Source: a bacterium
GTDB lineage: Bacteria > Patescibacteriota > Microgenomatia > Levybacterales > UBA12049
Assembly: GCA_021777565.1 (NCBI GenBank)
Contig: JAJYDJ010000001.1
Span: forward strand, 88,431 to 152,430
Reading direction: 5' to 3'
Length of the DNA stretch: 64,000 nucleotides
The position numbers and the translations under genes are program-made. Below the pieces are notes generated by a model. That model did no database searches and had not been told where the DNA came from. It saw only the letters and a program-made list of their open reading frames with translations. Of the stretch, positions 6,747 through 21,567 are shown piece by piece; the stretch's first letter is position 1, and every line of letters starts with the position of its first letter.

Positions 6747-6845
6747 TTGCGAAAGATATCAGAGAAGCGAGGAGAAGTCAACCTATAATAAATTCTTTGA
6801 TTTTTAAAGATCCTGTGATCTTACTTTTTTTGTTATAATTTCTTA

Positions 6846-7826
6846 ATGTTTCCTGACGTGTTGGTCCCCACATTGCAGAATAAAGAGAAGGCGGCGTTGC
6901 TATTAAAAAGTTACGGGAAAGATACCCTTTCATACTTTCATCTCCAGGAAGAACGTCAACATTTTTTCTCTCCTTCTGGAAAGTCCTTTCTGTCATTTAA
7001 GGTGCTTAACCGTGTCGCTATCGTCGCCGCGGATCCCGTGGGCCTCTCATCTGAGCTCCCAATCCTTCTGAAAGCATTCCTTGATTATACTAAGACATGG
7101 AAGTTAGTGCCGTGTTTTGTCGGACTAAGTGCCACATACATCTCATGTATACAATCCTATGGACTTAAGACGAAAAAAATCGGGGAGGAGGCAATTTTGT
7201 GCACAGAGCATTTTCAAAGAGAAAATTTGAAGAAAAAAGTGAAACATACACTGCGACATTTGGAAAAAGAAAATAGTGAGGTGTTCTTTTTTACATCCAA
7301 AAATTTGCCAGATGCAATACGCCAACAATTGAAGATGATTTCTCAGAGTTGGATTCAGAAAAAAGGTGGAAAAGAGAAAGGATTTTCAATGACCCTGAAA
7401 AGACTGCCTAATGAATCAGATGAGGATTGTCTTTTTGCCGTTGCGATGCATAGGGATCTTGCCTTGGGATATCTTTGTTTTGTGCCAATTTATAAGTCAG
7501 CAACATTGTCTTTGGATCAAGCTCGTCAAAAGAGTGATGCACCCAACGGGCTCAATGAACTTTTGATCATAAAATCTGCAGAATACTTTAGAGAAAGAGG
7601 TATAAAGAAATTAAGTCTGAATTTTGCTGCATTCTCACAGGTCACAACGCCAAAAACAGGAATAAAAAAAACAGTGTATGAAATCTTGGGAAATCTATAT
7701 AAAAGTAATACGCTTAGAAAGTTTAATGAAAAATTTCTGCCTTCATGGGAAGATAGGTATATTGCCTATCAGAGCCTTGGTCACATGCCACTATGTTTAC
7801 TCGCCATTTTACGTGCAGAGAGATAG
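6846..7826 (+). CDS. DUF2156-type domain protein (C-terminal aminoacyl-phosphatidylglycerol synthase/LPG-synthase-like domain, stand-alone)
   Basis: Reads like the soluble C-terminal aminoacyl-transferase domain of MprF-family enzymes without the flippase TM domain. I recognise the fold family but cannot point to a named motif. TATAAT-N6-ATG start. Confidence 0.6.
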   Translation: MFPDVLVPTLQNKEKAALLLKSYGKDTLSYFHLQEERQHFFSPSGKSFLSFKVLNRVAIVAADPVGLSSELPILLKAFLDYTKTWKLVPCFVGLSATYISCIQSYGLKTKKIGEEAILCTEHFQRENLKKKVKHTLRHLEKENSEVFFFTSKNLPDAIRQQLKMISQSWIQKKGGKEKGFSMTLKRLPNESDEDCLFAVAMHRDLALGYLCFVPIYKSATLSLDQARQKSDAPNGLNELLIIKSAEYFRERGIKKLSLNFAAFSQVTTPKTGIKKTVYEILGNLYKSNTLRKFNEKFLPSWEDRYIAYQSLGHMPLCLLAILRAER

Positions 7827-9599: not shown

Positions 9600-9800
9600 G
9601 TGTTTAGTATACCAAAAACCGAAGCAAGAAAGTCTAGATAATGCCTTGTTTTTTCTCTTGCAGGGGTGGAGGGAATATGAGCTTGCTCGCTTTGCTGCGC
9701 TTCCTCATGTAATTGAGGATAGTGATCCTCGCTTTGCTCGTTTTCACTATCTACTCAATTATCTGAACCCATGGGCTTGATTCTACACCCACTCAAAAAT

Positions 9801-9832
9801 AAAAAGACCAGACTAAAGTCTGGCATTTTATT
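9801..9832. terminator. Bidirectional rho-independent terminator hairpin
   Basis: AAAAA-GACCAGAC-TAAA-GTCTGG-C-ATTTTATT: 6-7 bp stem flanked by an A-run and a T-run. It lies downstream of the minus-strand Nudix gene. Confidence 0.5.
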
Positions 9833-9834
9833 CT

Positions 9835-9870
9835 GCAGGGGCTAGTGGACTTTGTTAGAACTCATTTTAT
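9835..9870. repeat. Imperfect direct repeat, copy A (gcaggggctagtgGactTTgttAgaac...)
   Basis: About 80% identical over about 35 nt to 13885-13920. Sits in an intergenic 3'UTR region. Confidence 0.6.
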
Positions 9871-9899
9871 GAGTGGAATAGCATTTTACTCAGGACTCA

Positions 9900-10358
9900 C
9901 TAGCTGAGTCCGACTGCATGGGCCAGAGGGACTTCGTGTCGTGCAAATAGAGCATTTAGGTATTCTTTTAAAGCCAGTATATAAGTCTTTGTAGATTCAG
10001 TAAGATGATGGGTGAGTGATTCATCAAGTGATAAAAATGCAATGGCTTGACCTTCCTCAGCTCCTAACTTAAAGAAATCCTGCTCGTCTTCTGTGATATA
10101 ACTCCAATATACATAAGTTTCTGACTGTTCATTCTTTTTTGCACCAATGTACTGTAGATTCTCTGGCGCATAGTTCACTTCTTCTTGTAGCTCCCGGCGG
10201 ATTGCCTGATCTGGAGATTCACCTTCTTCAATATAACCCCCAGGTAACTGCCATTGATTTGGATCGGCAATAGAAGGGATATTGTCTCTATGAAAGAATA
10301 GAACCTTATTTTGGAATATTATAATGGCTGTGACTACCTTTTTCATAGGGCATGACAT
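9900..10358 (-). CDS. Nudix hydrolase
   Basis: Nudix box 'GGYIEEGESPDQAIRRELQEEV' (GX5EX7REUXEEXGU); ATG at 10358. The ORF-track start 10367 is GTG. Confidence 0.75.
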   Translation of the reverse strand: MSCPMKKVVTAIIIFQNKVLFFHRDNIPSIADPNQWQLPGGYIEEGESPDQAIRRELQEEVNYAPENLQYIGAKKNEQSETYVYWSYITEDEQDFFKLGAEEGQAIAFLSLDESLTHHLTESTKTYILALKEYLNALFARHEVPLAHAVGLS

Positions 10359-10373
10359 ATAATGCACGTGACT

Positions 10374-11360
10374 ATGTGCAATAATCTACGATCTAAAGTT
10401 GAGTTTCTCGCAAGTCTCACACGCTGTCAAGAGTGGAAAGATACAAAGCTCAATTGGTATGTTTTTGCAGCGATCATGTATTTTCTCTCAAGAGGGGTAA
10501 GCCCACTACAACAAAATATAGCCTTTACATATCTAATCGTTCTTTTTTTTATTTATGCTTCCGCAGGAGCAATATCTAATGATTATGGTGATCTAGAACA
10601 GGATAGACTTTTGAAGAAGAAGAAAGCAATTTTGAGCTTAAAAGAGTCCAAAGTAGTTTTGCTCTTACTGATATTATCTGTTGTTTTTGAGATCGTAGTA
10701 CTAAATCTCACTCAAGCATTTGACTTCCGTTTTATACTAATTACCGTTGGCTACGGGATATGCCTTGAATACTCTTTGCCACCGTTGAGGTTTAAAGAGA
10801 GAGGTGTCTGGGGACTTTTGTTTGGTTCTATGGTGCAAAGAGCAATCCCGGTAGCGATACTCTTTACTATCTTCTCATTTTGGACTTTGTCAGGTGTTTT
10901 GTATGTGATATTCCTTATCATGGTTGGATTTCGGGCAATGATAGTCCACCAAATGAAGGATTATGAGAATGACATAAAATCTAGGACAAAAACAATGGCA
11001 ACCAACTCTGGAGTAGAGAGAATGGTAAAGTTGGAAAATGCCTCTTGGATTGTAGAATTATTAACTTTTTTTGTTTTTCTTATTTCTCTTACTCTTCAGA
11101 TGGAGAAATTATTCTTGTTATTCGGGTTTGTTACCTATTTACTAACATGGGGAGGTATTAAGCTGTGGAAGTATTCAATAATTCAGAAACTTAATAAGTT
11201 TAGCATGTCAAATGCTTTTCTAGCAGATTGGTATTACTGGTGGCTCCCAGCGATAGCAGCAGTTGCATTAGGTACGTATACTGGCAATTGGCTAGTACTA
11301 TTTTTTGTTGCTATTATGCAGCGTTTTCACTTTTTTAACCTGATTAAGAAATTTGTATGA
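10374..11360 (+). CDS. UbiA-family aromatic/polyprenyl prenyltransferase (integral membrane)
   Basis: Asp-rich motif 1 'NDYGDLEQD' (NDxxDxxxD) and motif 2 'KDYENDIKS'; 8-9 TM helices. Start at 10362 or 10374 is uncertain. TATAAT overlaps 10358-10363. Confidence 0.65.
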   Translation: MCNNLRSKVEFLASLTRCQEWKDTKLNWYVFAAIMYFLSRGVSPLQQNIAFTYLIVLFFIYASAGAISNDYGDLEQDRLLKKKKAILSLKESKVVLLLLILSVVFEIVVLNLTQAFDFRFILITVGYGICLEYSLPPLRFKERGVWGLLFGSMVQRAIPVAILFTIFSFWTLSGVLYVIFLIMVGFRAMIVHQMKDYENDIKSRTKTMATNSGVERMVKLENASWIVELLTFFVFLISLTLQMEKLFLLFGFVTYLLTWGGIKLWKYSIIQKLNKFSMSNAFLADWYYWWLPAIAAVALGTYTGNWLVLFFVAIMQRFHFFNLIKKFV

Positions 11361-12472
11361 AGATTCTCTATCATGCCATTAATAGTATTGGGGTTGGTCA
11401 TCTAAGTAGGCTTATTGGCGTGGCTGGTGGTATTCGTGAGATTAATCCTGGAGTATCGCAGCTGTTTTTAACTGAAGTCAAAGAGACAAAGTTTCTTAAA
11501 CTGCATAATTTCCCTTACTTCCCGTTGCCTTCCTTTCATGCGGTTCAAAAAGACCAAGAATGGTTAGGGATATTGAAGAGTAAAGAAATGTGGGTGAACA
11601 ATGTTAGCTCTCTCATTCATGCATATAATCCAGATATCATGATCTATGACACGGCAACATGGGCAGAAGTTTCTAATGCAGTGCGCACATGTCAGGTGAA
11701 GCCAAAGGAAGTCTTTATCCTTAGGGCCAGAAGGGATATGAAAAGATATTTTGAAGAGAATCAAGAAATTTTTTCACATTTAGACTTGCTTGTTTTCCCT
11801 CATTCAGAAGATGAATTAAACCCCGCGGAGATACCGCCTTACTTGCGTAAAAAGTACTTTGTGTCTGGAAGCATACTGCGGAGAGATGTCTCAGAAATAA
11901 ATAAAGAGGTGATTGAAGAGAAATATGCAGTAGAGGATGACTCTCAATTTATTATAACTGTGACAAACGGAGGAGGTAATTCATTACAGGAAGATAAAGA
12001 GCATTTCCTTCAGGATGTGCTACAGGCGATTTTTAATTGTGACGACAAGCTTCCTCCAAATTACAAAGTAATTGTTGTCGCTGGACCGCTTCTATTGAAT
12101 ATTACACTTCCTTCAATTCACTTACCACATGGTGAACTCATTATTCGTGAATATGAACCCTTAATGATCGATCTAATGGCGTTATCTAACTTAGTGATTT
12201 GTCGTGGAGGTTACAATACGATTAATGAAGTAATATCAATAAATACGCCAACTATAGCTATCCCTGCAGAGAGACTTTCAGATGACCAATTTAGTAGGGT
12301 AGAAAAAGTTGCTTCAAAGTCTGATAGTATTTTGCCAATAAGAATAGAAATGTTAGAAGATGCCTTGATAAATATTATACCAAAAGCTGTTTCATGGAAG
12401 TTCTGTGTTCCTGAAGTAGATGTGAGAAAGAAAAATAAGCTGAAGCTAGCTGAAAGGATCTTGAGTCTATGA
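11357..12472 (+). CDS. GT-B glycosyltransferase, GT28 C-terminal/PseG-SpsG-like
   Basis: N-terminal 'GVGHLSRL' (GxGHxxR) and C-terminal 'GGYNTINEVISINTPTIAIP' nucleotide-sugar binding region. The start ATG overlaps the UbiA stop. Confidence 0.6.
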   Translation: MKILYHAINSIGVGHLSRLIGVAGGIREINPGVSQLFLTEVKETKFLKLHNFPYFPLPSFHAVQKDQEWLGILKSKEMWVNNVSSLIHAYNPDIMIYDTATWAEVSNAVRTCQVKPKEVFILRARRDMKRYFEENQEIFSHLDLLVFPHSEDELNPAEIPPYLRKKYFVSGSILRRDVSEINKEVIEEKYAVEDDSQFIITVTNGGGNSLQEDKEHFLQDVLQAIFNCDDKLPPNYKVIVVAGPLLLNITLPSIHLPHGELIIREYEPLMIDLMALSNLVICRGGYNTINEVISINTPTIAIPAERLSDDQFSRVEKVASKSDSILPIRIEMLEDALINIIPKAVSWKFCVPEVDVRKKNKLKLAERILSL

Positions 12473-13155
12473 CAGAGCAAGAGCCAGTAGCAATTATTAC
12501 ATGTGGTGGTTTTGCGACACGTATGGGTGGAGAGCCTAAGTATCTTTTGCCTGTAACAGAGTCGGATAGAGTCATTGACCTAGCATTGGACCCAATCACG
12601 CGTCAACCAGAATTAGTAACTAGGCATGTTATTCTCGCTAGTGGGGCTCATAGAGAAGCCGTAGAGGATTATGCAGAAGTGTTGCGAGGCAGACACCCAA
12701 GTATAACTTTTGATATTAGTCATAGTAACCCTGAAGGTCAGTTTCACGCAATTGCACATGCTGCTGAAAAGTATGGAGTAGAAGGCAATGTAATTATCAT
12801 GAATGCAGACGAGATCGTGCCAGGGCTTGATTTAGTGTCAGCGCTGAGGGTGCATACAGACGCTCACCATAGTATTACACGCGTTGTCACAAGGGCAAGC
12901 AATGAAGGGACATCGTCTCTTAATGTTGATGAAGAAGATCGAGCTACGTTTTCTCAAACAAACTTTAGTGTATATGCAACTGGAGTCATTATTATTAGTC
13001 CATATGCAATGCAAATCGCAAAACAGTGTAGGAGTTCCCAGGAGTTTTGGGATATAATGACTACTACGCACCAAATACATGTTATTATCTGTGAAGCATC
13101 CTTGAATGTTAATACACCTGACGATTTAGAGGAAGCACGAAGGCGATTTAGTTGA
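12469..13155 (+). CDS. Nucleotidyltransferase (MobA/IspD-like NTP-transferase domain)
   Basis: 'IITCGGFATRMGGEPKYLLPV' matches GGxxxRMG...K of NTP_transf_3-type enzymes. The start overlaps the upstream stop. Confidence 0.55.
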   Translation: MTEQEPVAIITCGGFATRMGGEPKYLLPVTESDRVIDLALDPITRQPELVTRHVILASGAHREAVEDYAEVLRGRHPSITFDISHSNPEGQFHAIAHAAEKYGVEGNVIIMNADEIVPGLDLVSALRVHTDAHHSITRVVTRASNEGTSSLNVDEEDRATFSQTNFSVYATGVIIISPYAMQIAKQCRSSQEFWDIMTTTHQIHVIICEASLNVNTPDDLEEARRRFS

Positions 13156-13156
13156 T

Positions 13157-13855
13157 ATGAGCGATCTTATAATACCAAAACATCTGGGACTTATTGTTGA
13201 CGGTAATAGACGTTGGGCTAAAGCTCGTAATTTAAGTCCTCTCTATGGTCATGAAGTGGGAATTAGGGATGTGCTCCCTGGTATTATCAATCAGGCACAC
13301 AGGGTTGGAGTAGAGGAGGTTTCAGCTTGGATATTTTCAACAGAGAACTGGGACAGAAGTGATGAAGAGGTAGATCACCTGATGCAGCTTTTTATAAAAT
13401 TCACAGAGAGACTTTTGGATAGAGCAAAAGAGGATAGTATAGAAGTAAAACATGTGGGAAGAAAAGATCGAATTCCATCTCTATTAGTAGAGAGCTTAAT
13501 CAGGCTTGAAAAAGCCACGTTGGGACTTCCTAAAAGGCTCAATCTTTGTATTGATTTTGGTGGCAGGGATGAAATAGCGACAGCTGTTAGAGGCATAGTG
13601 AAAAATTGTGTCTCAGAAGAGAATATAGATGAAGGATTGATAGGTGATTATGTAAATAAATACAACGGTTTTAGGTTTAGTCCGGACCTTATTATTCGCA
13701 CAGGTGGGGCACAGCGTACTAGTGGCTTTATGGTTTGGGAAGCAGCGTATGCAGAGCTTGCTTTTGAAGAAAGTTATTTTCCTGACTTTACGCAGGATCT
13801 TCTAATGAAATGGCTTTCCGAGTACTCTTCGCGTGAAAGAAGATTTGGCAAATAG
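13157..13855 (+). CDS. uppS: Isoprenyl transferase (undecaprenyl-diphosphate synthase family, cis-prenyltransferase)
   Basis: 'HLGLIVDGNRRWA' and 'FSTENWDRSDEEV' UppS signatures. Confidence 0.85.
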   Translation: MSDLIIPKHLGLIVDGNRRWAKARNLSPLYGHEVGIRDVLPGIINQAHRVGVEEVSAWIFSTENWDRSDEEVDHLMQLFIKFTERLLDRAKEDSIEVKHVGRKDRIPSLLVESLIRLEKATLGLPKRLNLCIDFGGRDEIATAVRGIVKNCVSEENIDEGLIGDYVNKYNGFRFSPDLIIRTGGAQRTSGFMVWEAAYAELAFEESYFPDFTQDLLMKWLSEYSSRERRFGK

Positions 13856-13884
13856 ACTATTATCCTGTCTCGACGAGATCATCA

Positions 13885-13920
13885 GCAGGGGCTAGTGAAC
13901 TACGTTGGAAACTTTTATAC
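13885..13920. repeat. Imperfect direct repeat, copy B (gcaggggctagtgAactACgttGgaaac...)
   Basis: Matches 9835-9870. Sits between the uppS operon and the defense/mobile segment. Confidence 0.6.
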
Positions 13921-13947
13921 ACAATATCTCACACTAAATAGTGGACA

Positions 13948-14694
13948 CTAAGGAGTGCTGGTGTTTAGTTCGTTGAATAGTTTGTCCATTTCTGTAACCA
14001 TTTCATTATTTCCTATCTCTTGTGCGTACTTCGATGCTATGCGGATATAGGAAACTATAGCAATGACCAAACCTATTCTTAGTGAGTGCTCAAAATTATC
14101 TTTCCATCGTTTTTTGCTAGAGAATATCTGTGCATCTTCTGATGAGAGGTGGTTCTTCCTGTTTCCTTGTATATATCCTTGAATCAAATCTGCCATCTGT
14201 GTTGTACTAACAATTTTTTCTTTTACCAACTCATCAATCATTCCTTCAACTCCAGTCATAGACCAAGAATTAGCTAGTCGGTCGCTTCTTGTAAAATCTT
14301 TTTTTACGTTCTCAAAGTCATCGATAATTTCTTTCTCAAGGCTGCTATCCATTGCTATACCCAGTTTTTTGAGATATTCAAAGTTGATCCACCTCTCAAC
14401 GTAATAAAATTTGAGAAACTTCATCGCCATATGATCTTTATCCTTGATAACCATGAATTCAATGGAAATCATATCCTCAAATATCCTTCTTGATAAATCG
14501 AGTATTGCATCGCATGAAAGCAAATCATCTTGAAGAAGAGCAATTGAGTGTAGAATAGGATAATTTCTCCTTGCAATTACCATGAGTGTTGCAATGAAGG
14601 GTGGTGTTTTCTCATCAATATCCTCGACTTCCCCAAATTCGTCGGATAAAGAAAGTAATTTGGACAATACTTTTTTTATTTCGTCTGTTCTCAT
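13948..14694 (-). CDS. Hypothetical protein with DUF4145-like 'GNxxxH' motif (possible HEPN-related/Abi-like)
   Basis: 248 aa; 'IQGYIQGNRKNHLS'; located in the AT-rich island. Confidence 0.4.
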   Translation of the reverse strand: MRTDEIKKVLSKLLSLSDEFGEVEDIDEKTPPFIATLMVIARRNYPILHSIALLQDDLLSCDAILDLSRRIFEDMISIEFMVIKDKDHMAMKFLKFYYVERWINFEYLKKLGIAMDSSLEKEIIDDFENVKKDFTRSDRLANSWSMTGVEGMIDELVKEKIVSTTQMADLIQGYIQGNRKNHLSSEDAQIFSSKKRWKDNFEHSLRIGLVIAIVSYIRIASKYAQEIGNNEMVTEMDKLFNELNTSTP

Positions 14695-14757
14695 GAGAAT
14701 AAAATAGCACTTTAATTAAACTCTGTATAGAAAGATGCCCTACGTAGTGTATCTCTA

Positions 14758-15468
14758 TTACCCTATGTTGTCAGGCATCTCATCTTCATATTGCTTTGCA
14801 AGTTCAACATTGTCAATCCAATTAACGGTGAGGTGAATTAGGTCTTTAAGATTATCTAGGTCTTTATCATCCCACTTCCTTACATAGTGCGTCTCATCAT
14901 TTCCTAACCAAGCTGCTCGTCTTGCACATTTCTGAACTTGAGGATCAGCAATGGTGCCAATAACTGTACCAAGAAGGGTACTTTTTATTATTCCAATCTT
15001 TTTTTCTTTTTCAGCTCCATCTATATCAGGGATGAGATAGATCATATAGTCCTTTATGAGAAACTCTAGCGCCTTTCGATATCCTGGACCACATATAAAA
15101 TCGAGATTATTTCCCTCCGCAATTTGCGCTTGATGATATATTTCTTCAAAATCGCTCGAAATTCTATTGATTATTTTACTGAACTTCTCGCGATCTACGA
15201 TTGATAAGATCTCACGGGCATCTAATTCCCATATGTCACCATCGTATACATGATGCCTCGAATAAAATCCAAAGAAATTAAATCCGCACTCATTTCTTGG
15301 ACATTGAAAAACGAGTTGCAACATATTGCTAGTAGCTCTTATAGGAAGACATGCTTTAAAGATTGGTTCAATGCCTTTCTCACACGTAGGACACATATCT
15401 GGAAAACGCTCTATATGTCCTGTTACATGAGATCCATCACTGTCGGTATATTGAACTTTCCTATCCAT
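14758..15468 (-). CDS. Zn-ribbon plus DUF4145-like domain protein
   Basis: N-terminal 'CPTCEKG...CPRNEC'; C-terminal 'YRKALEFLIKDY...AWLGNDETHYVRKW...LIHLTVNWI' resembling DUF4145 (R..lGN..H). Confidence 0.5.
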   Translation of the reverse strand: MDRKVQYTDSDGSHVTGHIERFPDMCPTCEKGIEPIFKACLPIRATSNMLQLVFQCPRNECGFNFFGFYSRHHVYDGDIWELDAREILSIVDREKFSKIINRISSDFEEIYHQAQIAEGNNLDFICGPGYRKALEFLIKDYMIYLIPDIDGAEKEKKIGIIKSTLLGTVIGTIADPQVQKCARRAAWLGNDETHYVRKWDDKDLDNLKDLIHLTVNWIDNVELAKQYEDEMPDNIG

Positions 15469-15564
15469 ATTTCGGCTTCATTGTAGCATAATTCTTCACA
15501 GAACAGTCCAAGTGTGTAAATAAAATATAGTCTTTCATAAATCGTAGTGCTACAATCACCTCAA

Positions 15565-16449
15565 ATGGCAACCACGATAACCCAATCATTCTTAGAATTC
15601 AAAAATAACTTAGAGATAACTGGACTACAAGCAACTACAGTCTCTACAAGGCAAAAAAATGTACAAGATGCGATGCAAGCAAATATGAAAGTAGTAAAGA
15701 CGTTCCTGACGGGATCATATAAACGTCAAACAATGATTGCCCCATTAAATGAGGCAGATATTGATGTATTTGTGGTGCTAGATAATGAGTATTACTATCA
15801 CTACAATAATGGACAGAATGGTGGGCAGGCTGGGTTATTGGATTTAGTTAAAAGGACTTTGCTTCGTACATATACAAGAACTCCAGATATTGCGAGGGAT
15901 GGACAAGCAGTCACTATTCATTTCAGTGATTTTCTGGTTGATGTTGTACCAGGATTTAACAGACATGGAGGTGGATATTTCATTCCTAACTCCATTAAAC
16001 AAGAATGGCTTCGTACAGACCCAACGAAACACATCGAGTTGATCTCTTCTTCAAATATCGCACATGAAAACAAGTTAGTTCCTCTTATAAAGATGATTAA
16101 AGCATGGAATAGGAATACTGGCAGTTTTTTTCGTTCCTTTCATTTGGAAGCATTGGTATTAGAAATTATGCAATTTGTTACTATCACAGACTATCCATCA
16201 GGAGCACGGTACTTCTTTGATAAAGGCAGAACCCTCATTGCTAAGAAAAATCTTGATCCAGCAGGCTATGGTGATGACATTGGTTCATATATAAATAATG
16301 CTGATAAAATCAAAACAGCTGTCACCAAATTTGAAATGGCCTACAATAGGGCTCTAAAAGCTGAGGATTACGCAAGGAGAGGTTATATTTCTGATGCGAT
16401 TGGTCAGTGGAGACTTATCTTTGGAGGTTATTTCCCAACTTATGGCTAA
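15565..16449 (+). CDS. SMODS/CD-NTase-like nucleotidyltransferase (second-messenger synthase candidate)
   Basis: 'GSYKRQTMIAPLNEADIDVFVVL' (GS-x12-DxD), third acidic 'VDVVPGF', Mab21-like 'KAWNRNTGSFFRSFHLEALVLEIM'; TACAAT-N8-ATG start. Confidence 0.65.
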   Translation: MATTITQSFLEFKNNLEITGLQATTVSTRQKNVQDAMQANMKVVKTFLTGSYKRQTMIAPLNEADIDVFVVLDNEYYYHYNNGQNGGQAGLLDLVKRTLLRTYTRTPDIARDGQAVTIHFSDFLVDVVPGFNRHGGGYFIPNSIKQEWLRTDPTKHIELISSSNIAHENKLVPLIKMIKAWNRNTGSFFRSFHLEALVLEIMQFVTITDYPSGARYFFDKGRTLIAKKNLDPAGYGDDIGSYINNADKIKTAVTKFEMAYNRALKAEDYARRGYISDAIGQWRLIFGGYFPTYG

Positions 16450-16993
16450 GAATAAAAAAACAACCGCCACCGAAGTTATCGTTTCAAAGACAAAAGCTGA
16501 AATTATTAAAGAGGCTTTAAGGATTGAAGAGTCAACACGATATGCAGCAAAGAGTCACTATAATGATGGTGCCATGTGGGGATTTTGCCATTTATTGTTG
16601 GGTGTCCCTACAACGGTTCTATCAGCTCTTGTAGCCGTCAAATCTTTTGCACAATTTGATAGTAATCACAATACAGCTGGGATTATTGCATTAGTTGTTG
16701 CAGGGTTAAGTGGACTAATGACTTTTCTTAATCCTAATCAAAAAGCAGCTGTTCACCATAAAGCTGGAAGTGATTATGACTCTTTGAACAATAAAGTTAG
16801 AATCTTTAGAACAATTGATTGCTGGGGCAAAGATGCAGATATTGTTTTAACTGCGAGGTTGAAGGAATTCTCAGAAGAAAAAAGTAAACTACACGCAGAT
16901 AACCCTCAAACATCCTTCATTGGTTATACATTTGCAAAATGGGGCATCAAAAAAGGAGAAGCTGAATTTGTTGTTGATGCTAAAGAGGAATAA
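16442..16993 (+). CDS. Two-transmembrane SLATT-like effector protein
   Basis: The ATG overlaps the SMODS stop by 8 nt; two hydrophobic helices 'WGFCHLLLGVPTTVLSALVAVKSF' and 'AGIIALVVAGLSGLMTFLNP'; about 183 aa. Confidence 0.6.
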   Translation: MAKNKKTTATEVIVSKTKAEIIKEALRIEESTRYAAKSHYNDGAMWGFCHLLLGVPTTVLSALVAVKSFAQFDSNHNTAGIIALVVAGLSGLMTFLNPNQKAAVHHKAGSDYDSLNNKVRIFRTIDCWGKDADIVLTARLKEFSEEKSKLHADNPQTSFIGYTFAKWGIKKGEAEFVVDAKEE

Positions 16994-17160
16994 AATCTCA
17001 CACTTGAGTATAATGGGTATATGCAATCATTAGTTCAAAATGGTATTTGGAACGAAAGGACTTGGAGGAATTCTCTTTGAGACCACAAATGAGCTTTGGC
17101 AGGCATTGAATAACTTTTTGGGAACGTACTTTTATAAAGCTCAGTGGTAGACTAAAACTA

Positions 17161-17589
17161 GTGAATATACATTTGTCACCACAAATCAAAAGTTGGGAAG
17201 AAGTATCAGTTTGCACAGATTTCGTGGCTAAAACACCTAACTATGTGCCAAAACTGCTTCATGCCCTAGAATATTCTTGTACGATCCAAGAGGCATGTCT
17301 GTATGCAGGGGTGCCTCGAAGAACCTTGTATAACCATCTCAAAACAAATCCTGAACTTGTAGAATTAGTCCAAAAAGCAAAGCGCTATCCAATCATACGA
17401 GCAAAATGGCGTATGATGGATATTATTGACCATGGAAATGATCGAGATGCAGGGATGATGATTCGCTGGTTCTTAGAAAGACAACAGCCTGAAGTCTATG
17501 GTAAAAAGGGGAGGATGACAGCATCATACCTAGATGCTTCCGTATCAATTTCAGAAATTCATGAGAATCAATTACCCCTTTTCTCCTGA
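17161..17589 (+). CDS. HTH-domain protein (phage terminase small-subunit-like N-terminus?), non-ATG start or 5'-degraded
   Basis: 'IQEACLYAGVPRRTLYNHLKTNPEL' HTH. The first in-frame ATG is about 85 codons in; the ORF track uses GTG. Confidence 0.35.
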   Translation: MNIHLSPQIKSWEEVSVCTDFVAKTPNYVPKLLHALEYSCTIQEACLYAGVPRRTLYNHLKTNPELVELVQKAKRYPIIRAKWRMMDIIDHGNDRDAGMMIRWFLERQQPEVYGKKGRMTASYLDASVSISEIHENQLPLFS

Positions 17590-17616
17590 TTCAAGAACAC
17601 TTGTAAACTCTATGGA

Positions 17617-18213
17617 TTACTTCTTGGGCGTGGGTGACACAATACCATCATAGACATATCCTGTCGTATTATCCGTCAAATAGGTCTCTACAATGTCTGT
17701 TTCTTGTACTGTGACACCAAACGCGTTTGGTCCAGATTTAATGCCAAGAACCGTGCCCCAGATTGTTATCGAGTCGCCTTTGTTTATTTGCTTGAGTGAC
17801 ATATCTGGATCTAATTCTATATATGCAACAATTCCATTATCACTAACATTCATCCCAGTGGTATTTCCTTTTGAATCTTGAATAAACTCAGAGACTTTTG
17901 CCGTAAACGCAACTGGTTTTGTTTTGTAAAAATTGGGTTGTTTAGCTAAGTCTGCAAGTGTGACATTCTCCATACGTGCCTTGTCTTCATTTGCTTTTGT
18001 TACCCAGTCTGTCGTAGGCTCTGGTGTGGTACTTATTGCCACTGAAGGGGTATCTGTGACTTGTGTGTCTACTTGCTCGGCTTGTGATATATCGCTTGGC
18101 GTAGTAGAGGAATGGATTATACCTACAATCACTCCAGCAACGACAATAACAACACAGATAATCCCAACAAGAGAAAGTCCATCAAAGATAATCTTTGGTT
18201 TTTGATTTGCCAT
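17617..18213 (-). CDS. Membrane-anchored extracytoplasmic protein
   Basis: Strong SD (AAAGGAGGTGAACAT-ATG); N-terminal TM 'IIFDGLSLVGIICVVIVVAGVIVGII' then a Thr/Pro-rich linker. Confidence 0.55.
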   Translation of the reverse strand: MANQKPKIIFDGLSLVGIICVVIVVAGVIVGIIHSSTTPSDISQAEQVDTQVTDTPSVAISTTPEPTTDWVTKANEDKARMENVTLADLAKQPNFYKTKPVAFTAKVSEFIQDSKGNTTGMNVSDNGIVAYIELDPDMSLKQINKGDSITIWGTVLGIKSGPNAFGVTVQETDIVETYLTDNTTGYVYDGIVSPTPKK

Positions 18214-18638
18214 ATGTTCACCTCCTTTCATATGCGCTGTATTGGCTGCAAATAAGTTATTGAGGGAACACAAAAAGCTCCCCCCAGCGATGGATTGCTC
18301 CACCTGCCGTAGTTTCCCACGACAACCTCAACAGCGCTCTGGAGAGAGCTTACTGCTGTTGAGGTTTTGCAACCATGCCTGTCAGAGTGACAAGTTTAGG
18401 TCGATAACTTGTACATGAATTGTACCATAAAGTGGAGTATACAGAAATGGACTTAGCCATAAATTTGAGTATTTTGATCAGACGGCACTTGTGCCGTCTG
18501 CACGATTAGCCACGAAAAAAAAATCATGCAACTGCCCTATAGTAAGCATCTTTGAAGCTAAGGGTAAAAAAAGTTAGTAAAGAAACTAATCCTCATATAT
18601 CTTTGTACTAGATCCAATAAATTCTTATTGGTGTGAAG

Positions 18639-18836
18639 ATGTATATGAAATCTAAATTTGTTTCTCACGGTAACACTGCTTGGCTTAATCCTTATCATGC
18701 TCTTCGCGTTAAAGAAGTATTTGAAAAAAAATATAAAAAGAGGTTATCAGATGAAGAAGTTACTGAAATAGCAAAAAATCTTGTAGGCATGATGGAGATT
18801 ATTTTTAGGATAAATGTTTATGAAAAATGCATATAA
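18639..18836 (+). CDS. Small hypothetical protein
   Basis: About 65-aa ORF in the mobile segment. Confidence 0.3.
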   Translation: MYMKSKFVSHGNTAWLNPYHALRVKEVFEKKYKKRLSDEEVTEIAKNLVGMMEIIFRINVYEKCI

Positions 18837-19053
18837 AACAAAAGATCTTGCAGAGGCTAGCTTTCTGCTTGCAAATGGTAAAAAATTACTCCTCCTTGAA
18901 AGAGATGGTAGAGTTTGCTGGTTTGTCTACCCTGATCGAACAGAGTGTGAAACTTTAGTAAGTTCCTTCTGGTTCAATGATGCTGTTGTTAATGCTAAGA
19001 ATTTCTATGATGCTATCCAGATGCTAAAAGGGCGTATTTTTTCACAAATTTAA
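18814..19053 (+). CDS. Small phage-like hypothetical protein
   Basis: 79 aa; overlaps upstream ORF end; 'ASFLLANGKKLLLLERDGRVCWFVY' pattern seen in small phage/CPR proteins (recollection, unverified). Confidence 0.35.
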   Translation: MFMKNAYKTKDLAEASFLLANGKKLLLLERDGRVCWFVYPDRTECETLVSSFWFNDAVVNAKNFYDAIQMLKGRIFSQI

Positions 19054-19069
19054 TATTTTTGACTTGAAT

Positions 19070-19432
19070 ATGAAAGATGTAAATGAAATATTAAAAACAC
19101 TACCAGTTAACAGTAGTAAAGGCGATAAGCCTACAGTTAACAGTAATACAGTTAACTGTAGTGATAAAAATTTTACTCAAAAGCTTGAAGACTTACTTCA
19201 GGAAGAAAATTTAGACAGCGAAGGAAAAGCGCTCTTATTTGCTCAAGAATTAGACGACAAGAAGAGTCTTGCTTGGTATAAGTTACTTATTAGAGAACAT
19301 GATAATACAAAGCTATTTGAGGCTCTTTCGTATGTTAAACATGCATATCGTGAAGGGAAAATTAAAACCACAAGAGCACACTATTTTAGGGGTATTTTAA
19401 TTAGATGGAAATTTAAGGTAAAATTTTCCTAA
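19070..19432 (+). CDS. Hypothetical protein
   Basis: ATG at 19070 (ORF-track TTG at 19064); ends 2 nt before the recombinase start. Confidence 0.35.
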   Translation: MKDVNEILKTLPVNSSKGDKPTVNSNTVNCSDKNFTQKLEDLLQEENLDSEGKALLFAQELDDKKSLAWYKLLIREHDNTKLFEALSYVKHAYREGKIKTTRAHYFRGILIRWKFKVKFS

Positions 19433-19433
19433 T

Positions 19434-20960
19434 ATGCTTCGCTATTTTATTTATTGTCGTAAGTCTTCTGAAGCGAGGGATCGGCAGGCACTCTCTATTG
19501 AAGCACAGAGAAGAGAGTTATCAGAATACGCCGAACGAAATAATTTGAAGGTTGTACAGATATTTGAAGAATCACAGTCTGCATATAAGTTAGGTCGTCC
19601 GATCTTCGATAAAATGATGAAAATGTGTGGGGAAGGATTGGCGAACGGAATACTCACTTGGAAGCCCGACAGACTCGCTAGAAACGCCCTAGACGGTGGT
19701 AAAGTCATTCAAGCACTAGATGATAAGGTTCTGCAAGAAATACGCACTCCATACGAAATATTTAAGCAAGAAGATAATCGTATGATGCTCTACGTGTTAT
19801 TTGGTATGTCCAATGACTTCTCACGACAAATTAGTGCAAATGTGAAGCGCGGGAATAGACAGAAGTATGTGAGAGGAGAATTCCTCGGAAAAGCTCCGGT
19901 AGGATATGTAAATGCTCAAATTGGTAACTCTCGTAATATCGTTCCAGACCCCGCAAAAGCCCCACTGGTAAGAAAACTGTTTGAGGAGTACTCGACAGGG
20001 AAATATTCAGTGATGCAAATTCTTACCATGGCACATGATCTCAATCTCACGTCTGTTTTTGGGAATAAATTTGTCAAAAGTGAGATGTATAGAGTCCTTA
20101 AATGTCCTGTCTATTACGGGGTATTTCAACATGGAGGAGAATTTCATAAAGGAAGCTATGAACCACTCATTTCTAAAGAATTATATAATAAAGTGCAAGA
20201 TGTTCTGGCAAATAGAAGTAAGCCGAAAAAACAAGATTGGATACATCCTTACATCGGCCTTATCAAATGTAAAAACTGTGGATGTGCGATCACTTGTACA
20301 ACAAAAGTGAAGCGATATAAACGCACAAATCGCACCGCTTCTTATACCTATTACCATTGTACAAAAAGAAGAGGCCCTTGTGACCAGTCAGCTGTTACCG
20401 AGAGTGAACTAGAGCGAATGCTTTATGAGCAAGTCGCTCAAATACATATTGATAAAGAGATTTGGGATTTAGGAGTGGAGTTATTAAAAGCAAAACATTC
20501 AAATGAATTTCAAGAGCATGAAAAACTAAAATTTAGTTTGACATTCGAAATTGAGAAGTTAGATAAGTGTTTAGAAAAACTTCTGACCATGCGTTTGAAT
20601 GAAGAGATTACGGCAAGTGAGTATGCAGATCAGAAGAAAGTGTTTATCGATAAAAGATTAGAGCTTCAGGAAAAAATGAATGACAGAGATCATTCAACCT
20701 CAAATTGGTTGGAACTCGCTGAAAACTTCTTTGAGACGGCATATCACGCACGAGAGGTCATGGAAAGTGATGATATGGATGCAAAGAGGGAATTAGTGCA
20801 AACTGTCGGTTGGAACCTCTTTTTAGACAATCAAAAACTCGAATTTAGCTTCAAAAAACCGTATGATGTACTACTCGTACCTGAAATAAAGGATAACGTG
20901 CAGGGGTGGAGGGAATCGAACCCCCAGTCGCGGTTTTGGAGACCGCTGGTTTACCGTTAA
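19434..20960 (+). CDS. Large serine recombinase (resolvase/invertase N-domain, recombinase domain, Zn-ribbon)
   Basis: 'YCRKSSEARDRQALSIEAQ' catalytic Ser region, 'DRLARN', Cys-rich 'CKNCGC...YYHC' zinc ribbon. The 3' end overlaps tRNA-Trp. Confidence 0.85.
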   Translation: MLRYFIYCRKSSEARDRQALSIEAQRRELSEYAERNNLKVVQIFEESQSAYKLGRPIFDKMMKMCGEGLANGILTWKPDRLARNALDGGKVIQALDDKVLQEIRTPYEIFKQEDNRMMLYVLFGMSNDFSRQISANVKRGNRQKYVRGEFLGKAPVGYVNAQIGNSRNIVPDPAKAPLVRKLFEEYSTGKYSVMQILTMAHDLNLTSVFGNKFVKSEMYRVLKCPVYYGVFQHGGEFHKGSYEPLISKELYNKVQDVLANRSKPKKQDWIHPYIGLIKCKNCGCAITCTTKVKRYKRTNRTASYTYYHCTKRRGPCDQSAVTESELERMLYEQVAQIHIDKEIWDLGVELLKAKHSNEFQEHEKLKFSLTFEIEKLDKCLEKLLTMRLNEEITASEYADQKKVFIDKRLELQEKMNDRDHSTSNWLELAENFFETAYHAREVMESDDMDAKRELVQTVGWNLFLDNQKLEFSFKKPYDVLLVPEIKDNVQGWRESNPQSRFWRPLVYR

Positions 20961-20972
20961 CCGACACCCCCG
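20902..20972 (-). tRNA. tRNA-Trp (anticodon CCA)
   Basis: Minus-strand cloverleaf: acceptor GGGGGTG/CACCCCT, anticodon stem GCGGT/ACCGC, loop CTCCAAA, T-loop TTCGATT; no encoded CCA. Confidence 0.8.
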
Positions 20973-20993: not shown

Positions 20994-21015
20994 AAAAAAC
21001 CTCGCTGTGCGAGGT
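20994..21015 (-). terminator. Rho-independent terminator downstream of rpmG
   Basis: Minus strand reads CCTCGC-ACA-GCGAGG followed by TTTTTTTAT. Confidence 0.6.
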
Positions 21016-21040
21016 CGTGCGTGAGATATGATCTCTCAAA

Positions 21041-21284: not shown

Positions 21285-21359
21285 GCCGACATAGCTCAGC
21301 GGTAGAGCAGCTGTTTTGTAAACAGCAGGTCATCAGTCCGAATCTGATTGTCGGCTCCA
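21285..21359 (+). tRNA. tRNA-Thr (anticodon TGT)
   Basis: Acceptor GCCGACA/TGTCGGC, anticodon stem GCTGT/ACAGC, loop TTTGTAA, T-loop TCCGAAT, encoded CCA. Confidence 0.85.
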
Positions 21360-21385
21360 ATCTGTTATAATGTTCCATACGTAAT

Positions 21386-21473
21386 GCTGAGTTGGCGGAG
21401 CAGTCAATCGCACCTGACTGTAGATCAGGCGACCGGAAGGTCTACGGGAGTGCAAATCTCTCACTCAGCACCA
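21386..21473 (+). tRNA. tRNA-Tyr (anticodon GTA), class II with long variable arm
   Basis: Acceptor GCTGAGT/ACTCAGC, anticodon stem CCTGA/TCAGG, loop CTGTAGA, 16-nt variable arm, encoded ACCA. Confidence 0.85.
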
Positions 21474-21475
21474 AT

Positions 21476-21547
21476 GCCGATGTGGCTCAGTGGTAGAGCA
21501 TCTTCTTGGTAAGAAGAAGGTCATGGGTCCGATTCCCATCATCGGCT
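21476..21547 (+). tRNA. tRNA-Thr (anticodon GGT)
   Basis: Acceptor GCCGATG/CATCGGC, anticodon stem TCTTC/GAAGA, loop TTGGTAA, T-loop TCCGATT; CCA not encoded. Confidence 0.85.
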
Positions 21548-21567
21548 CTGCGAGAATCACGAAAATA

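Follow-up and report, generated by a model that had tools for sequence, protein, structure and literature searches.

Phage-type large serine recombinases (LSRs), for example those of A118/LI, Bxb1 and phiC31 and SprA of SPbeta, have a common domain order of resolvase, recombinase and zinc ribbon with a coiled coil, recombine at short identity cores (typically 5-8 bp; PMC8092301) and use a motif that lies 5 bp further out in attP than in attB. For the LI integrase, the 9-bp motif bound by the zinc-ribbon domain is found at positions 16-24 in attP and 11-19 in attB (PMC3783163). Serine integrases usually disrupt protein-coding genes (PMC8092301; PMC5357655), and PMC3218068 calls the integration of serine recombinases into tRNA genes rare, the cited cases being the small serine recombinase of phiRSM1 at tRNA-Ser and eight Mycobacterium actinomycete integrative and conjugative elements (AICEs) at tRNA-Leu (PMC3218068; PMC3816273). 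In a 64-kb stretch of contig JAJYDJ010000001.1 (hereafter the window, to which all coordinates refer unless a locus is named), a first-pass annotation had pointed out an LSR gene that reads into the 3' half of a tRNA-Trp gene. We have re-examined its claims, and we read the locus, with a probability of roughly 0.85, as a 7-kb defence element that was placed by its own LSR and is the innermost part of an 11-kb insertion, with an attP that spans the LSR open reading frame (ORF) and with targeting guided by the tRNA T-loop.

This locus shares traits with each of the described systems and differs from all of them. The window LSR has the domain order, the short core and the 5-bp offset of the phage-type LSRs, but its clade is very distant from them, with at most 28% identity to any deposited phage record and a match to SPbeta SprA (PDB) at E 2e-5; moreover, its element targets a tRNA 3' end and not a protein-coding gene, its attP lies inside the integrase ORF, and the motif is seen only in the tRNA-side half-sites. 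The Mycobacterium AICEs (Ghinet et al. 2011, PMC3218068) likewise insert a small element into a tRNA gene by means of PF07508-type recombinases; however, they belong to another phylum and use another tRNA, tRNA-Leu (compared here by description), and neither an ORF-spanning attP nor a T-loop mimic is described in the available part of that report. The phiRSM1/3 integrase (Askora et al. 2011; reviewed in PMC3816273) is a serine recombinase whose core is the tRNA-Ser 3' end (13 nt, in reverse, beside int), but it is a small resolvase/invertase-like enzyme without recombinase or zinc-ribbon domains, its attP is intergenic, and its core is longer. Tyrosine-integrase tRNA islands and SSV-type viruses also integrate at tRNA 3' ends and preserve the tRNA, although their enzymes are unrelated in family and chemistry and tens of bp of the tRNA are duplicated. 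The int gene of SSV-type viruses contains attP, so that int is split on integration into two non-functional parts, whereas here only a tail modelled at low confidence is exchanged. With regard to the traits of tyrosine-type islands, the integrase in the window is a serine recombinase, the repeat at 13885 and 9835 is only 7 bp, and a tRNA fragment of 18 nt, not assignable to this element, is present at 9659-9676.

The recombinase gene and its surroundings on the right are as follows.
19434-20960, plus strand: LSR gene in its integrated form, 508 aa, the last ~20 codons being antisense tRNA-Trp and non-native
20900-20971, minus strand: intact tRNA-Trp(CCA), called by ARAGORN, its last 7 nt being the recombination core
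20998-21016, minus strand: predicted terminator between rpmG and tRNA-Trp

The LSR stop codon, TAA at 20958-20960, lies within the convergent tRNA-Trp gene, and the overlap of 61 nt corresponds to 20 codons and the stop. The end at 20960 had been given correctly in the first-pass annotation, while the limits of the tRNA are moved from 20902-20972 to those called by ARAGORN. The last ~20 codons had been described as antisense to the T-arm and acceptor stem, which holds, but the overlap also passes through the anticodon: these codons (...VQGWRESNPQSRFWRPLVYR) run antisense through the 3' strand of the acceptor stem, the T-arm, the variable region and the arm of the anticodon, and the tryptophan of ...SRFWRP... 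is encoded by TGG, the antisense of the anticodon CCA. The motifs YCRKSS and DRLARN and the zinc ribbon that had been listed for the protein are all present, in agreement with its Pfam domains (Resolvase PF00239, 2.9e-20; Recombinase PF07508, 4.5e-13; Zn_ribbon_recom PF13408, 6.8e-07), and in an alignment of 40 homologs R9, S11, R80, R83 and N84 are invariant or nearly so. In the AlphaFold model of P0030, an unintegrated homolog that is 62% identical to the window LSR and has a native tail, a catalytic domain, a recombinase domain, a zinc ribbon and a long coiled coil (344-448) are seen, the helices 344-391 and 397-448 having beta strands on either side, followed by a final beta-hairpin at 462-476. 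The mean pLDDT of this model is 81; it is confident to about residue 488, and the tail, residues 489-518, scores below 50 in a region where the alignment is shallow. Judged by its catalytic residues and by its recombinase and zinc-ribbon domains with the coiled coil, the 508-aa protein is an LSR, and from its family it is predicted to catalyze integration by attP x attB recombination and excision with a directionality factor.

The rpmG-tRNA-Trp arrangement had been reported to be intact with its own terminator and promoter, and this is borne out by the terminator at 20998-21016 and by a promoter-like site upstream of rpmG. On the other side of tRNA-Trp, no terminator-like site was found in the present context (20300-20900, minus strand), so that a transcript begun at the tRNA promoter could continue, in antisense, as far as the recombinase gene. 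Such read-through is a possible source of transcriptional interference with this gene.

With a threshold of E <= 1e-10, 2,897 homologs were obtained in a protein search, those with names coming from Microgenomates, Curtissbacteria, Pacebacteria and other Patescibacteria, and the tails were inspected in the best 120 of the 2,897 (42-76% identity; two outliers of ~880 aa, 34%). The C-termini of the homologs part ways directly after a conserved ...KKPYDVLLxPxxRxxV. Sixty-five of the best 120 continue with a [DE]SN-type sequence, which corresponds to GAnTCGAAC, the antisense T-loop, and in 21 of those 65 the Trp anticodon follows in antisense (...FWR...). Forty-six end no more than 17 residues past the conserved motif, and 4 have a different, conserved native tail. 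In addition, 160 related loci from viral and metagenome contigs were scanned with tblastn and ARAGORN, and the 96 with an aligned C-terminal region were classified as follows.
47 of 96 loci: ORF ends in or against a convergent tRNA
24 of 96 loci: native tail, no tRNA
11 of 96 loci: tRNA-like tail, no tRNA called
8 of 96 loci: unclear
6 of 96 loci: contig stops before the ORF end
0 of 96 loci: co-directional tRNA

The convergent tRNAs are of 13 types (Gln 10, Gly 8, Asn 8, His 5 and Trp 3; Ala, Ser, Leu, Glu and Val 2 each; Thr, Asp and Arg 1 each), and the antisense T-loop is read in one shared frame in 30 of 35 cases. Since the ORF runs into a convergent tRNA in 47 of the 96 loci and a co-directional tRNA is seen in none, the overlap is a property of the family and not due to chance. 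In L099, L102 and L228, the LSR tails (such as ...GSDSNRRPIGYTYP...) resemble antisense tRNA at places where ARAGORN calls no tRNA; they may come from unusual or degraded tRNA genes.

The 24 native-tail loci have in common a motif of roughly L-x-[DE]-V-R-T-[FYW], and no tRNA was found anywhere in them, up to 10 kb beyond the gene being covered in the longest; in the case of P0030, co-directional genes come after the LSR on the contig. These loci are taken as unintegrated (attP) forms in which the ORF spans attP, and therefore displaced tail DNA is expected at the far end of integrated elements. A hidden Markov model of the tail found displaced tails at the far ends of L171, L174, L191, L195, L205 and L253, and one is also present in the window, where the attachment sites of the 7-kb element are as follows.
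13885-13891, no strand: inner attL core GCAGGGG, the same as the attR core
13886-13951, plus strand: remnant native recombinase tail (P' arm), QGLVNYVGNFYTQYLTLNSGH and a stop, homologous to the P0030 tail (QGLVNYVRDFFWEI...)
20860-20899, plus strand: P arm of attP/attR, within the 3' end of the recombinase ORF (...PYDVLLVPEIKDNV)
20900-20906, no strand: attR core GCAGGGG, antisense of the tRNA 3' end ...CCCCTGC
20914-20922, no strand: B' arm motif AATCGAACC (antisense T-loop and T-stem), its TCGAAC beginning 9 nt past the core

For comparison, the tail of P0030 runs ...VQG followed by LVNYVRDFFWEI. The inner P' arm of the window has a decayed T-loop-like motif, GTTGGAAAC, at 13904-13912, with TGGAAA beginning 14 nt past the core. 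In front of every scar stands a short block that is the same as the 3' terminus of the tRNA, and the attL/attR cores thus delimited are GCAGGGG in the window (13885-13891 and 20900-20906), TGCAGGGG(C) in L171, TGCTGCGGG in L174, TGCTCCG in L191, GCTCCGAG in L205 and GTGCAGG in L253. The cores are therefore 7-9 bp in six elements, which are joined by L195, whose attL and attR share only ~4 bp (GCGG, determined by hand, since the script chose a wrong block); the elements are 6.4-11 kb in length. For L251, the left boundary was not found within 10 kb. An older recombinase remnant beside the inner core of the window was considered and rejected, as the 29 nt to the left are, by eye, unlike the 3' end of an LSR gene, and tblastn of the window found no other LSR fragment.

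Since the core is made up of the terminal nucleotides of the tRNA, integration leaves the tRNA as it was and replaces only its 3' trailer. The position of attP within the recombinase gene is the reason why the ORF extends into the tRNA. In the mechanism that we propose, the LSR gene would run across attP, the P arm being its 3' coding end and the core and P' arm encoding a short tail; integration would move the tail-coding DNA to the opposite end of the element, where it would form attL, and would leave the ORF reading antisense into the tRNA up to a chance stop. On this reading, the segment 13892-20899 is a 7-kb integrative element directly downstream of tRNA-Trp in a Patescibacteria-like genome, put there by its own LSR through attP x attB recombination at a shared core formed by the last 7 nt of the tRNA gene. 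This is supported by the tRNA association of the family, by the displaced tail at 13885-13951 and by the LSR-free tRNA-Trp genes of relatives described below. The structural model favours the tail as a by-product of an attP within the ORF rather than a folded module. It had been proposed that the locus is the classical footprint of an element with an attachment site overlapping the 3' end of a tRNA, and that a partial duplicate of this end might be found near 13.9 kb. An integrated element with an overlapping attachment site is retained, and the 7-bp core at 13885 is such a duplicate; no tRNA duplicate was seen in a direct-repeat search over 10-24 kb, which covered too small a range to be informative and was unsuited to so short a core, and with a core of 7 bp, as expected for a serine integrase, the element is not of the classical tyrosine-integrase type.

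The P' and B' arms are related by the T-loop. In the native-tail (attP) loci, the V-R-T codons are GTT in 18 of 22, CGA in 13 of 22 (AGA in 6 of 22) and ACC in 16 of 22, and they spell GTT(C/A)GAACC, which is the sequence of the T-loop and has a palindromic core, GTTCGAAC. CGA is usually a rare codon, and its dominance here therefore indicates a DNA-level constraint on the tail. The distance from the core to TCGAAC is 8-12 nt in B' and exactly 5 nt longer in P' in all 8 junction pairs from 7 elements (6 pairs by script, and L174 and L195 by hand on the same output; B' and P' arms only). When the geometry of the LI integrase is applied here, the crossover falls inside the identity core. When 29 attP sites were scanned for dyad symmetry, the best admissible centre was between GCA and GGGG, with a weak signal (0.319 compared with a mean of 0.253, sd 0.029). 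It is likely that the crossover takes place within GCAGGGG, tentatively at the AG of GC[AG]GGG. By analogy with the LI integrase, the B' arm motif at 20914-20922 may be the attB motif bound by the zinc-ribbon domain, so that this domain would read the T-loop motif and the bases of the acceptor stem would set the tRNA specificity. The tRNA side of attB (acceptor 3' strand and T-arm) would thus be the main recognition half-site, and the T-loop copy in the P' arm, 5 bp further from the crossover, would let the zinc-ribbon domains tell attP from attB, as they do in known serine integrases. Since the geometry of the T-arm is universal, sublineages could retarget to other tRNAs through a changed acceptor-stem specificity. 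In our view the anatomy and boundaries of the element, the tRNA association of its family, the empty sites and the 5-bp offset are demonstrated, whereas the domain that reads the motif, the precise dinucleotide of the crossover and mobility today are deduced. A conserved R-[LF]-E-P is also encoded ~24 codons before the junction in L183, L187, L191, L196, L202, L205 and other homologs of 33-37% identity; its DNA, TTCGAACC or TTAGAACC, again resembles the T-loop, is read in a different frame and lies at too great a distance from the core to be a normal half-site.

A second left end was revealed by a six-frame search of the window for the tail peptide, and the features around it are as follows.
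9659-9676, no strand: exact 18-nt copy of the tRNA-Trp 3' end (TGCAGGGGTGGAGGGAAT), E 9e-5, in the same orientation and 11.2 kb from the tRNA
9807-9824, minus strand: terminator-like hairpin, 10 nt from the outer core
9835-9907, plus strand: outer attL scar, with the core GCAGGGG at 9835-9841, an intact P' arm encoding QGLVDFVRTHFMSGIAFYSGLTS and a stop, and the motif GTTAGAACT at 9854-9862
9900-13855: ~4-kb segment between the two attL scars, GC 37-40%, with NUDIX on the minus strand and UbiA, GT28, nucleotidyltransferase and UppS on the plus strand

The outer scar is better preserved than the inner one. The hairpin at 9807-9824 probably represents the terminator that first followed tRNA-Trp, in other words the host B arm, and the 18-nt copy may be the scar of an older event, and may come from a different kind of element. 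From the outer scar, the 18-nt tRNA fragment and the adjoining terminator, it follows that foreign DNA probably spans 9842-20899 and that the insertion is layered, the 7-kb element (13892-20899) being the innermost layer of a composite of ~11 kb that starts at 9842. The 4-kb segment between the scars has no genes in common with other elements of the family and may be an older layer or cargo. The base composition had been described as markedly AT-rich over 13.9-20.9 kb; the region is indeed AT-rich, but the dip is modest (36-39% GC compared with roughly 41-47% elsewhere in the window) and begins near 10 kb and not at 13.9 kb. It was also observed that UppS, usually regarded as essential for cell-wall synthesis, may sit on inserted DNA, and that in L259 a similar tRNA 3'-half fragment lies ~30 nt downstream of an LSR-free tRNA-Trp, beside a repeated TTCTGGGACAAA. 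In L171, three tandem native-tail scars at 784, 1702 and 2352 of that locus, 650-920 bp apart, lie upstream of one tRNA-Trp element, a pattern that suggests several rounds of integration with deletion afterwards; the site is thus typically used more than once.

Relatives were found through the neighbouring M50 protease. In L259 and L260, the order of the right flank, fmt-def-(L28)-M50-tRNA Thr/Tyr/Thr-rpmG-tRNA-Trp, is kept, and neither an LSR nor a tail scar is present; beyond tRNA-Trp, L260 has Mur ligase, PAP2, nucleotidyltransferase, secE, nusG and rplK, and L259 has MgtC. L257 provides a third tRNA-Trp without LSR or tail scar. By contrast, L253, with the same right flank, is occupied by a 6.4-kb element with different cargo and an LSR 72% identical to that of the window, and secE-nusG are located 4 kb beyond. 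The empty sites that the first-pass annotation had suggested looking for therefore exist (L259, L260 and L257), and so does the size polymorphism on which it had staked its reading, L259 and L260 being empty and L253 occupied by a different element. Its expectation of secE/nusG beyond an empty tRNA-Trp holds for L260, beyond intervening genes, and these genes are also near L253, but they do not flank the site in the window. The tRNA Thr-Tyr-Thr cluster has one orientation relative to rpmG in the window (21285-21548) and L260 and the opposite one in L253 (11960-12510) and L259 (11199-11558), which is a small local inversion among related genomes. A scan of species-representative genomes with UppS found no close relative (at most 42% identity), and thus offered no test of synteny.

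Several results weigh against the integrated-element reading as a whole or in its parts. No empty site and no excised circle was found in the same strain, all 10 contigs of which (~six samples) carry the element; none of 22 whole contigs, of the native-tail and tRNA-ending kinds, showed the terminal overlap of a circular contig; the P' motif of the inner attL (GTTGGAAAC) is degraded; no clear mirrored T-loop motif was detected in the left (B and P) arms, where symmetry is weak; no recombination directionality factor was recognised; and the reading does not account for the 4-kb segment between the scars. As the left arms show no clear motif, the attachment sites look asymmetric. Same-strain look-ups with exact proteins (LSR, UppS and a 186-aa neighbour) returned only occupied contigs, 100% identical except for one mismatch in L004, and neither the predicted attP junction nor the predicted attB junction was found by exact search in viral contigs.

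Some of these results would also be expected if the element were a fixed, immobile remnant, in which the LSR integrated once, excision was lost and the ORF persists as a read-through relic. We consider this unlikely, although it survives better than the other alternatives: the presence of the element in every contig of the strain from ~six samples, the degraded inner P' motif and the absence of a recognised directionality factor speak for it, whereas the LSR ORF is intact with all of its conserved catalytic residues, and the outer attL at 9835 keeps both the core and the P' motif. The decay of the inner P' motif may have left the 7-kb unit unable to excise; because the core and P' motif of the outer attL are intact, the 11-kb composite could still do so. 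Present-day mobility of the window copy is unproven.

The cargo and the accessory genes of the 7-kb element are as follows.
13948-15468, minus strand: cargo, DUF5677-like protein (13948-14694) and phrog_1305 DNA-binding protein (14758-15468)
15547-16993, plus strand: type I cyclic-oligonucleotide-based antiphage signalling system (CBASS), CD-NTase 15547-16449 and two-transmembrane (2TM) effector 16394-16993 (PADLOC, Pfam)
17161-17589, plus strand: terS-like helix-turn-helix (HTH) protein with a GTG start (PHROG terminase small subunit, 1.6e-11)
17617-18303, minus strand: membrane protein with weak outer-membrane and Sie-like PHROG matches
18633-19432, plus strand: three small ORFs upstream of the LSR (67 aa; DUF5659, 79 aa; 122 aa)

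Defence genes, a terS-like HTH ORF without an ATG start and small ORFs had all been predicted here, and were found as CBASS, a GTG start and DUF5659, respectively. The CBASS genes match the PADLOC Cyclase (5e-102) and 2TM effector (1.4e-51) models and Pfam SMODS (1e-26), and a cyclase with an adjacent transmembrane effector and without ancillary genes is what defines, at the level of gene content, CBASS type I. A complete type I CBASS is thus seen in a Patescibacteria-like genome of ~0.95 Mb. Within the family, the conserved genes of the element are the LSR, the ~60-aa ORF and DUF5659, often with terS-like and Cro-like HTH genes. The ~60-aa ORF and the DUF5659 ORF (18633-19053) are each conserved in 6 of the family elements compared and adjoin each other upstream of the LSR in the window, L171, L174 and L253; together with the terS-like HTH protein, they are candidates for a directionality factor or for regulators. 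The distal end is variable and rich in defence genes: CBASS in the window and, at the same cargo position, a type III restriction-modification system in L205 (1111-5227 of that locus) and large proteases in L191 and L171, with Hypoth_Ymh in L171. The element itself is of an ordinary kind, a small integrative defence island. In L174, a second, shorter recombinase-like ORF (6842-7813 of that locus, minus strand, 323 aa) lies inside the element and clusters with the LSRs.

P4-like and PICI (phage-inducible chromosomal island) satellites are also small; the integrase lies at one of their ends, the other is a variable hotspot for defence genes, and a terS-like gene is present. They use tyrosine integrases. 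It is conceivable, though somewhat less probable than an immobile remnant, that the element is a phage satellite packaged by a helper phage through the terS-like protein, with the LSR serving for integration only. A terS-like gene is found upstream of the LSR in L250, L251 and L253 as well as in the window, and elements of 6-11 kb with defence cargo at the variable end resemble such satellites. However, no capsid, primase or replication genes were recognised among the Pfam and PHROG matches, and no helper-interaction or capsid-remodelling genes either; the terS matches are short HTH regions that fall below the cut-offs in Pfam, and for this candidate packaging protein a role in recombination directionality or in regulation is just as possible. 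Given that neither capsid nor replication genes were recognised, life as a satellite is no more than a possibility.

The exchange of the tail could also be a functional switch, in which the native tail modulates activity or stability so that the free and the integrated enzyme differ, by analogy with the integration-dependent immunity of mycobacteriophages. Twenty-four loci share the conserved tail peptide L-x-[DE]-V-R-T-aromatic, with some synonymous variation ahead of the motif, and integration-dependent changes of C-termini are known elsewhere (PMC8092301; phiRSS0 ORF13, PMC3816273). On the other hand, the GTT/CGA/ACC codon usage indicates constraint on the DNA, the tail is modelled at a pLDDT below 50 (though from a shallow alignment), its length and sequence past the motif vary freely, and the tRNA-derived tails that replace it are arbitrary, which makes such a switch improbable. 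Insertion by another mechanism with the LSR as a passenger, either by a tyrosine-integrase element that left the 18-nt fragment at 9659 or by homologous recombination, is very improbable despite this direct repeat at 9659-9676 and the similar fragment after the LSR-free tRNA-Trp of L259, since no tyrosine recombinase is present among the ORFs of 12-24 kb or the Pfam-labelled genes from ~3.2 kb to 29.4 kb, and since the LSR-tRNA arrangement with its own displaced tail recurs over dozens of unrelated loci and 13 tRNA types.

Integration of serine recombinases at tRNA genes was already known but rare, and what we regard as new within this known kind is the integrase clade and the architecture of its sites. 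In a limited literature search, we found no paper on serine integrases in Patescibacteria, and neither an LSR clade of these bacteria that targets tRNA genes, nor an attP running across the ORF of an LSR, nor a mimic of the T-loop was found to have been described, although such reports may exist; Durrant et al. 2022 do not mention tRNA. A wider proposal would combine a large, undescribed LSR clade abundant in Patescibacteria, an acceptor/T-arm half-site and a T-loop mimic in the ORF with a tail exchange that senses the integration state and so biases the direction of recombination; in this full form it is improbable.

Serine integrases are workhorses of genome engineering and have been thought to target almost exclusively protein-coding genes. 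The clade of the window LSR is, in its entirety, an exception: its database homologs number in the thousands, and tRNA genes of at least 13 types are targeted with one fixed geometry. If the T-loop is the distal half-site motif and the acceptor stem chooses the tRNA, this would explain how integrases are retargeted in evolution. A possible application follows from the resemblance of the natural sites of this clade to sequences that are conserved in all life, eukaryotic tRNA genes included. For the bacteria themselves, the family shows that members of the candidate phyla radiation with tiny genomes gain defence systems, such as CBASS and restriction-modification, on integrative elements of 6-11 kb, and that tRNA-Trp is a landing site that is used repeatedly in these bacteria.

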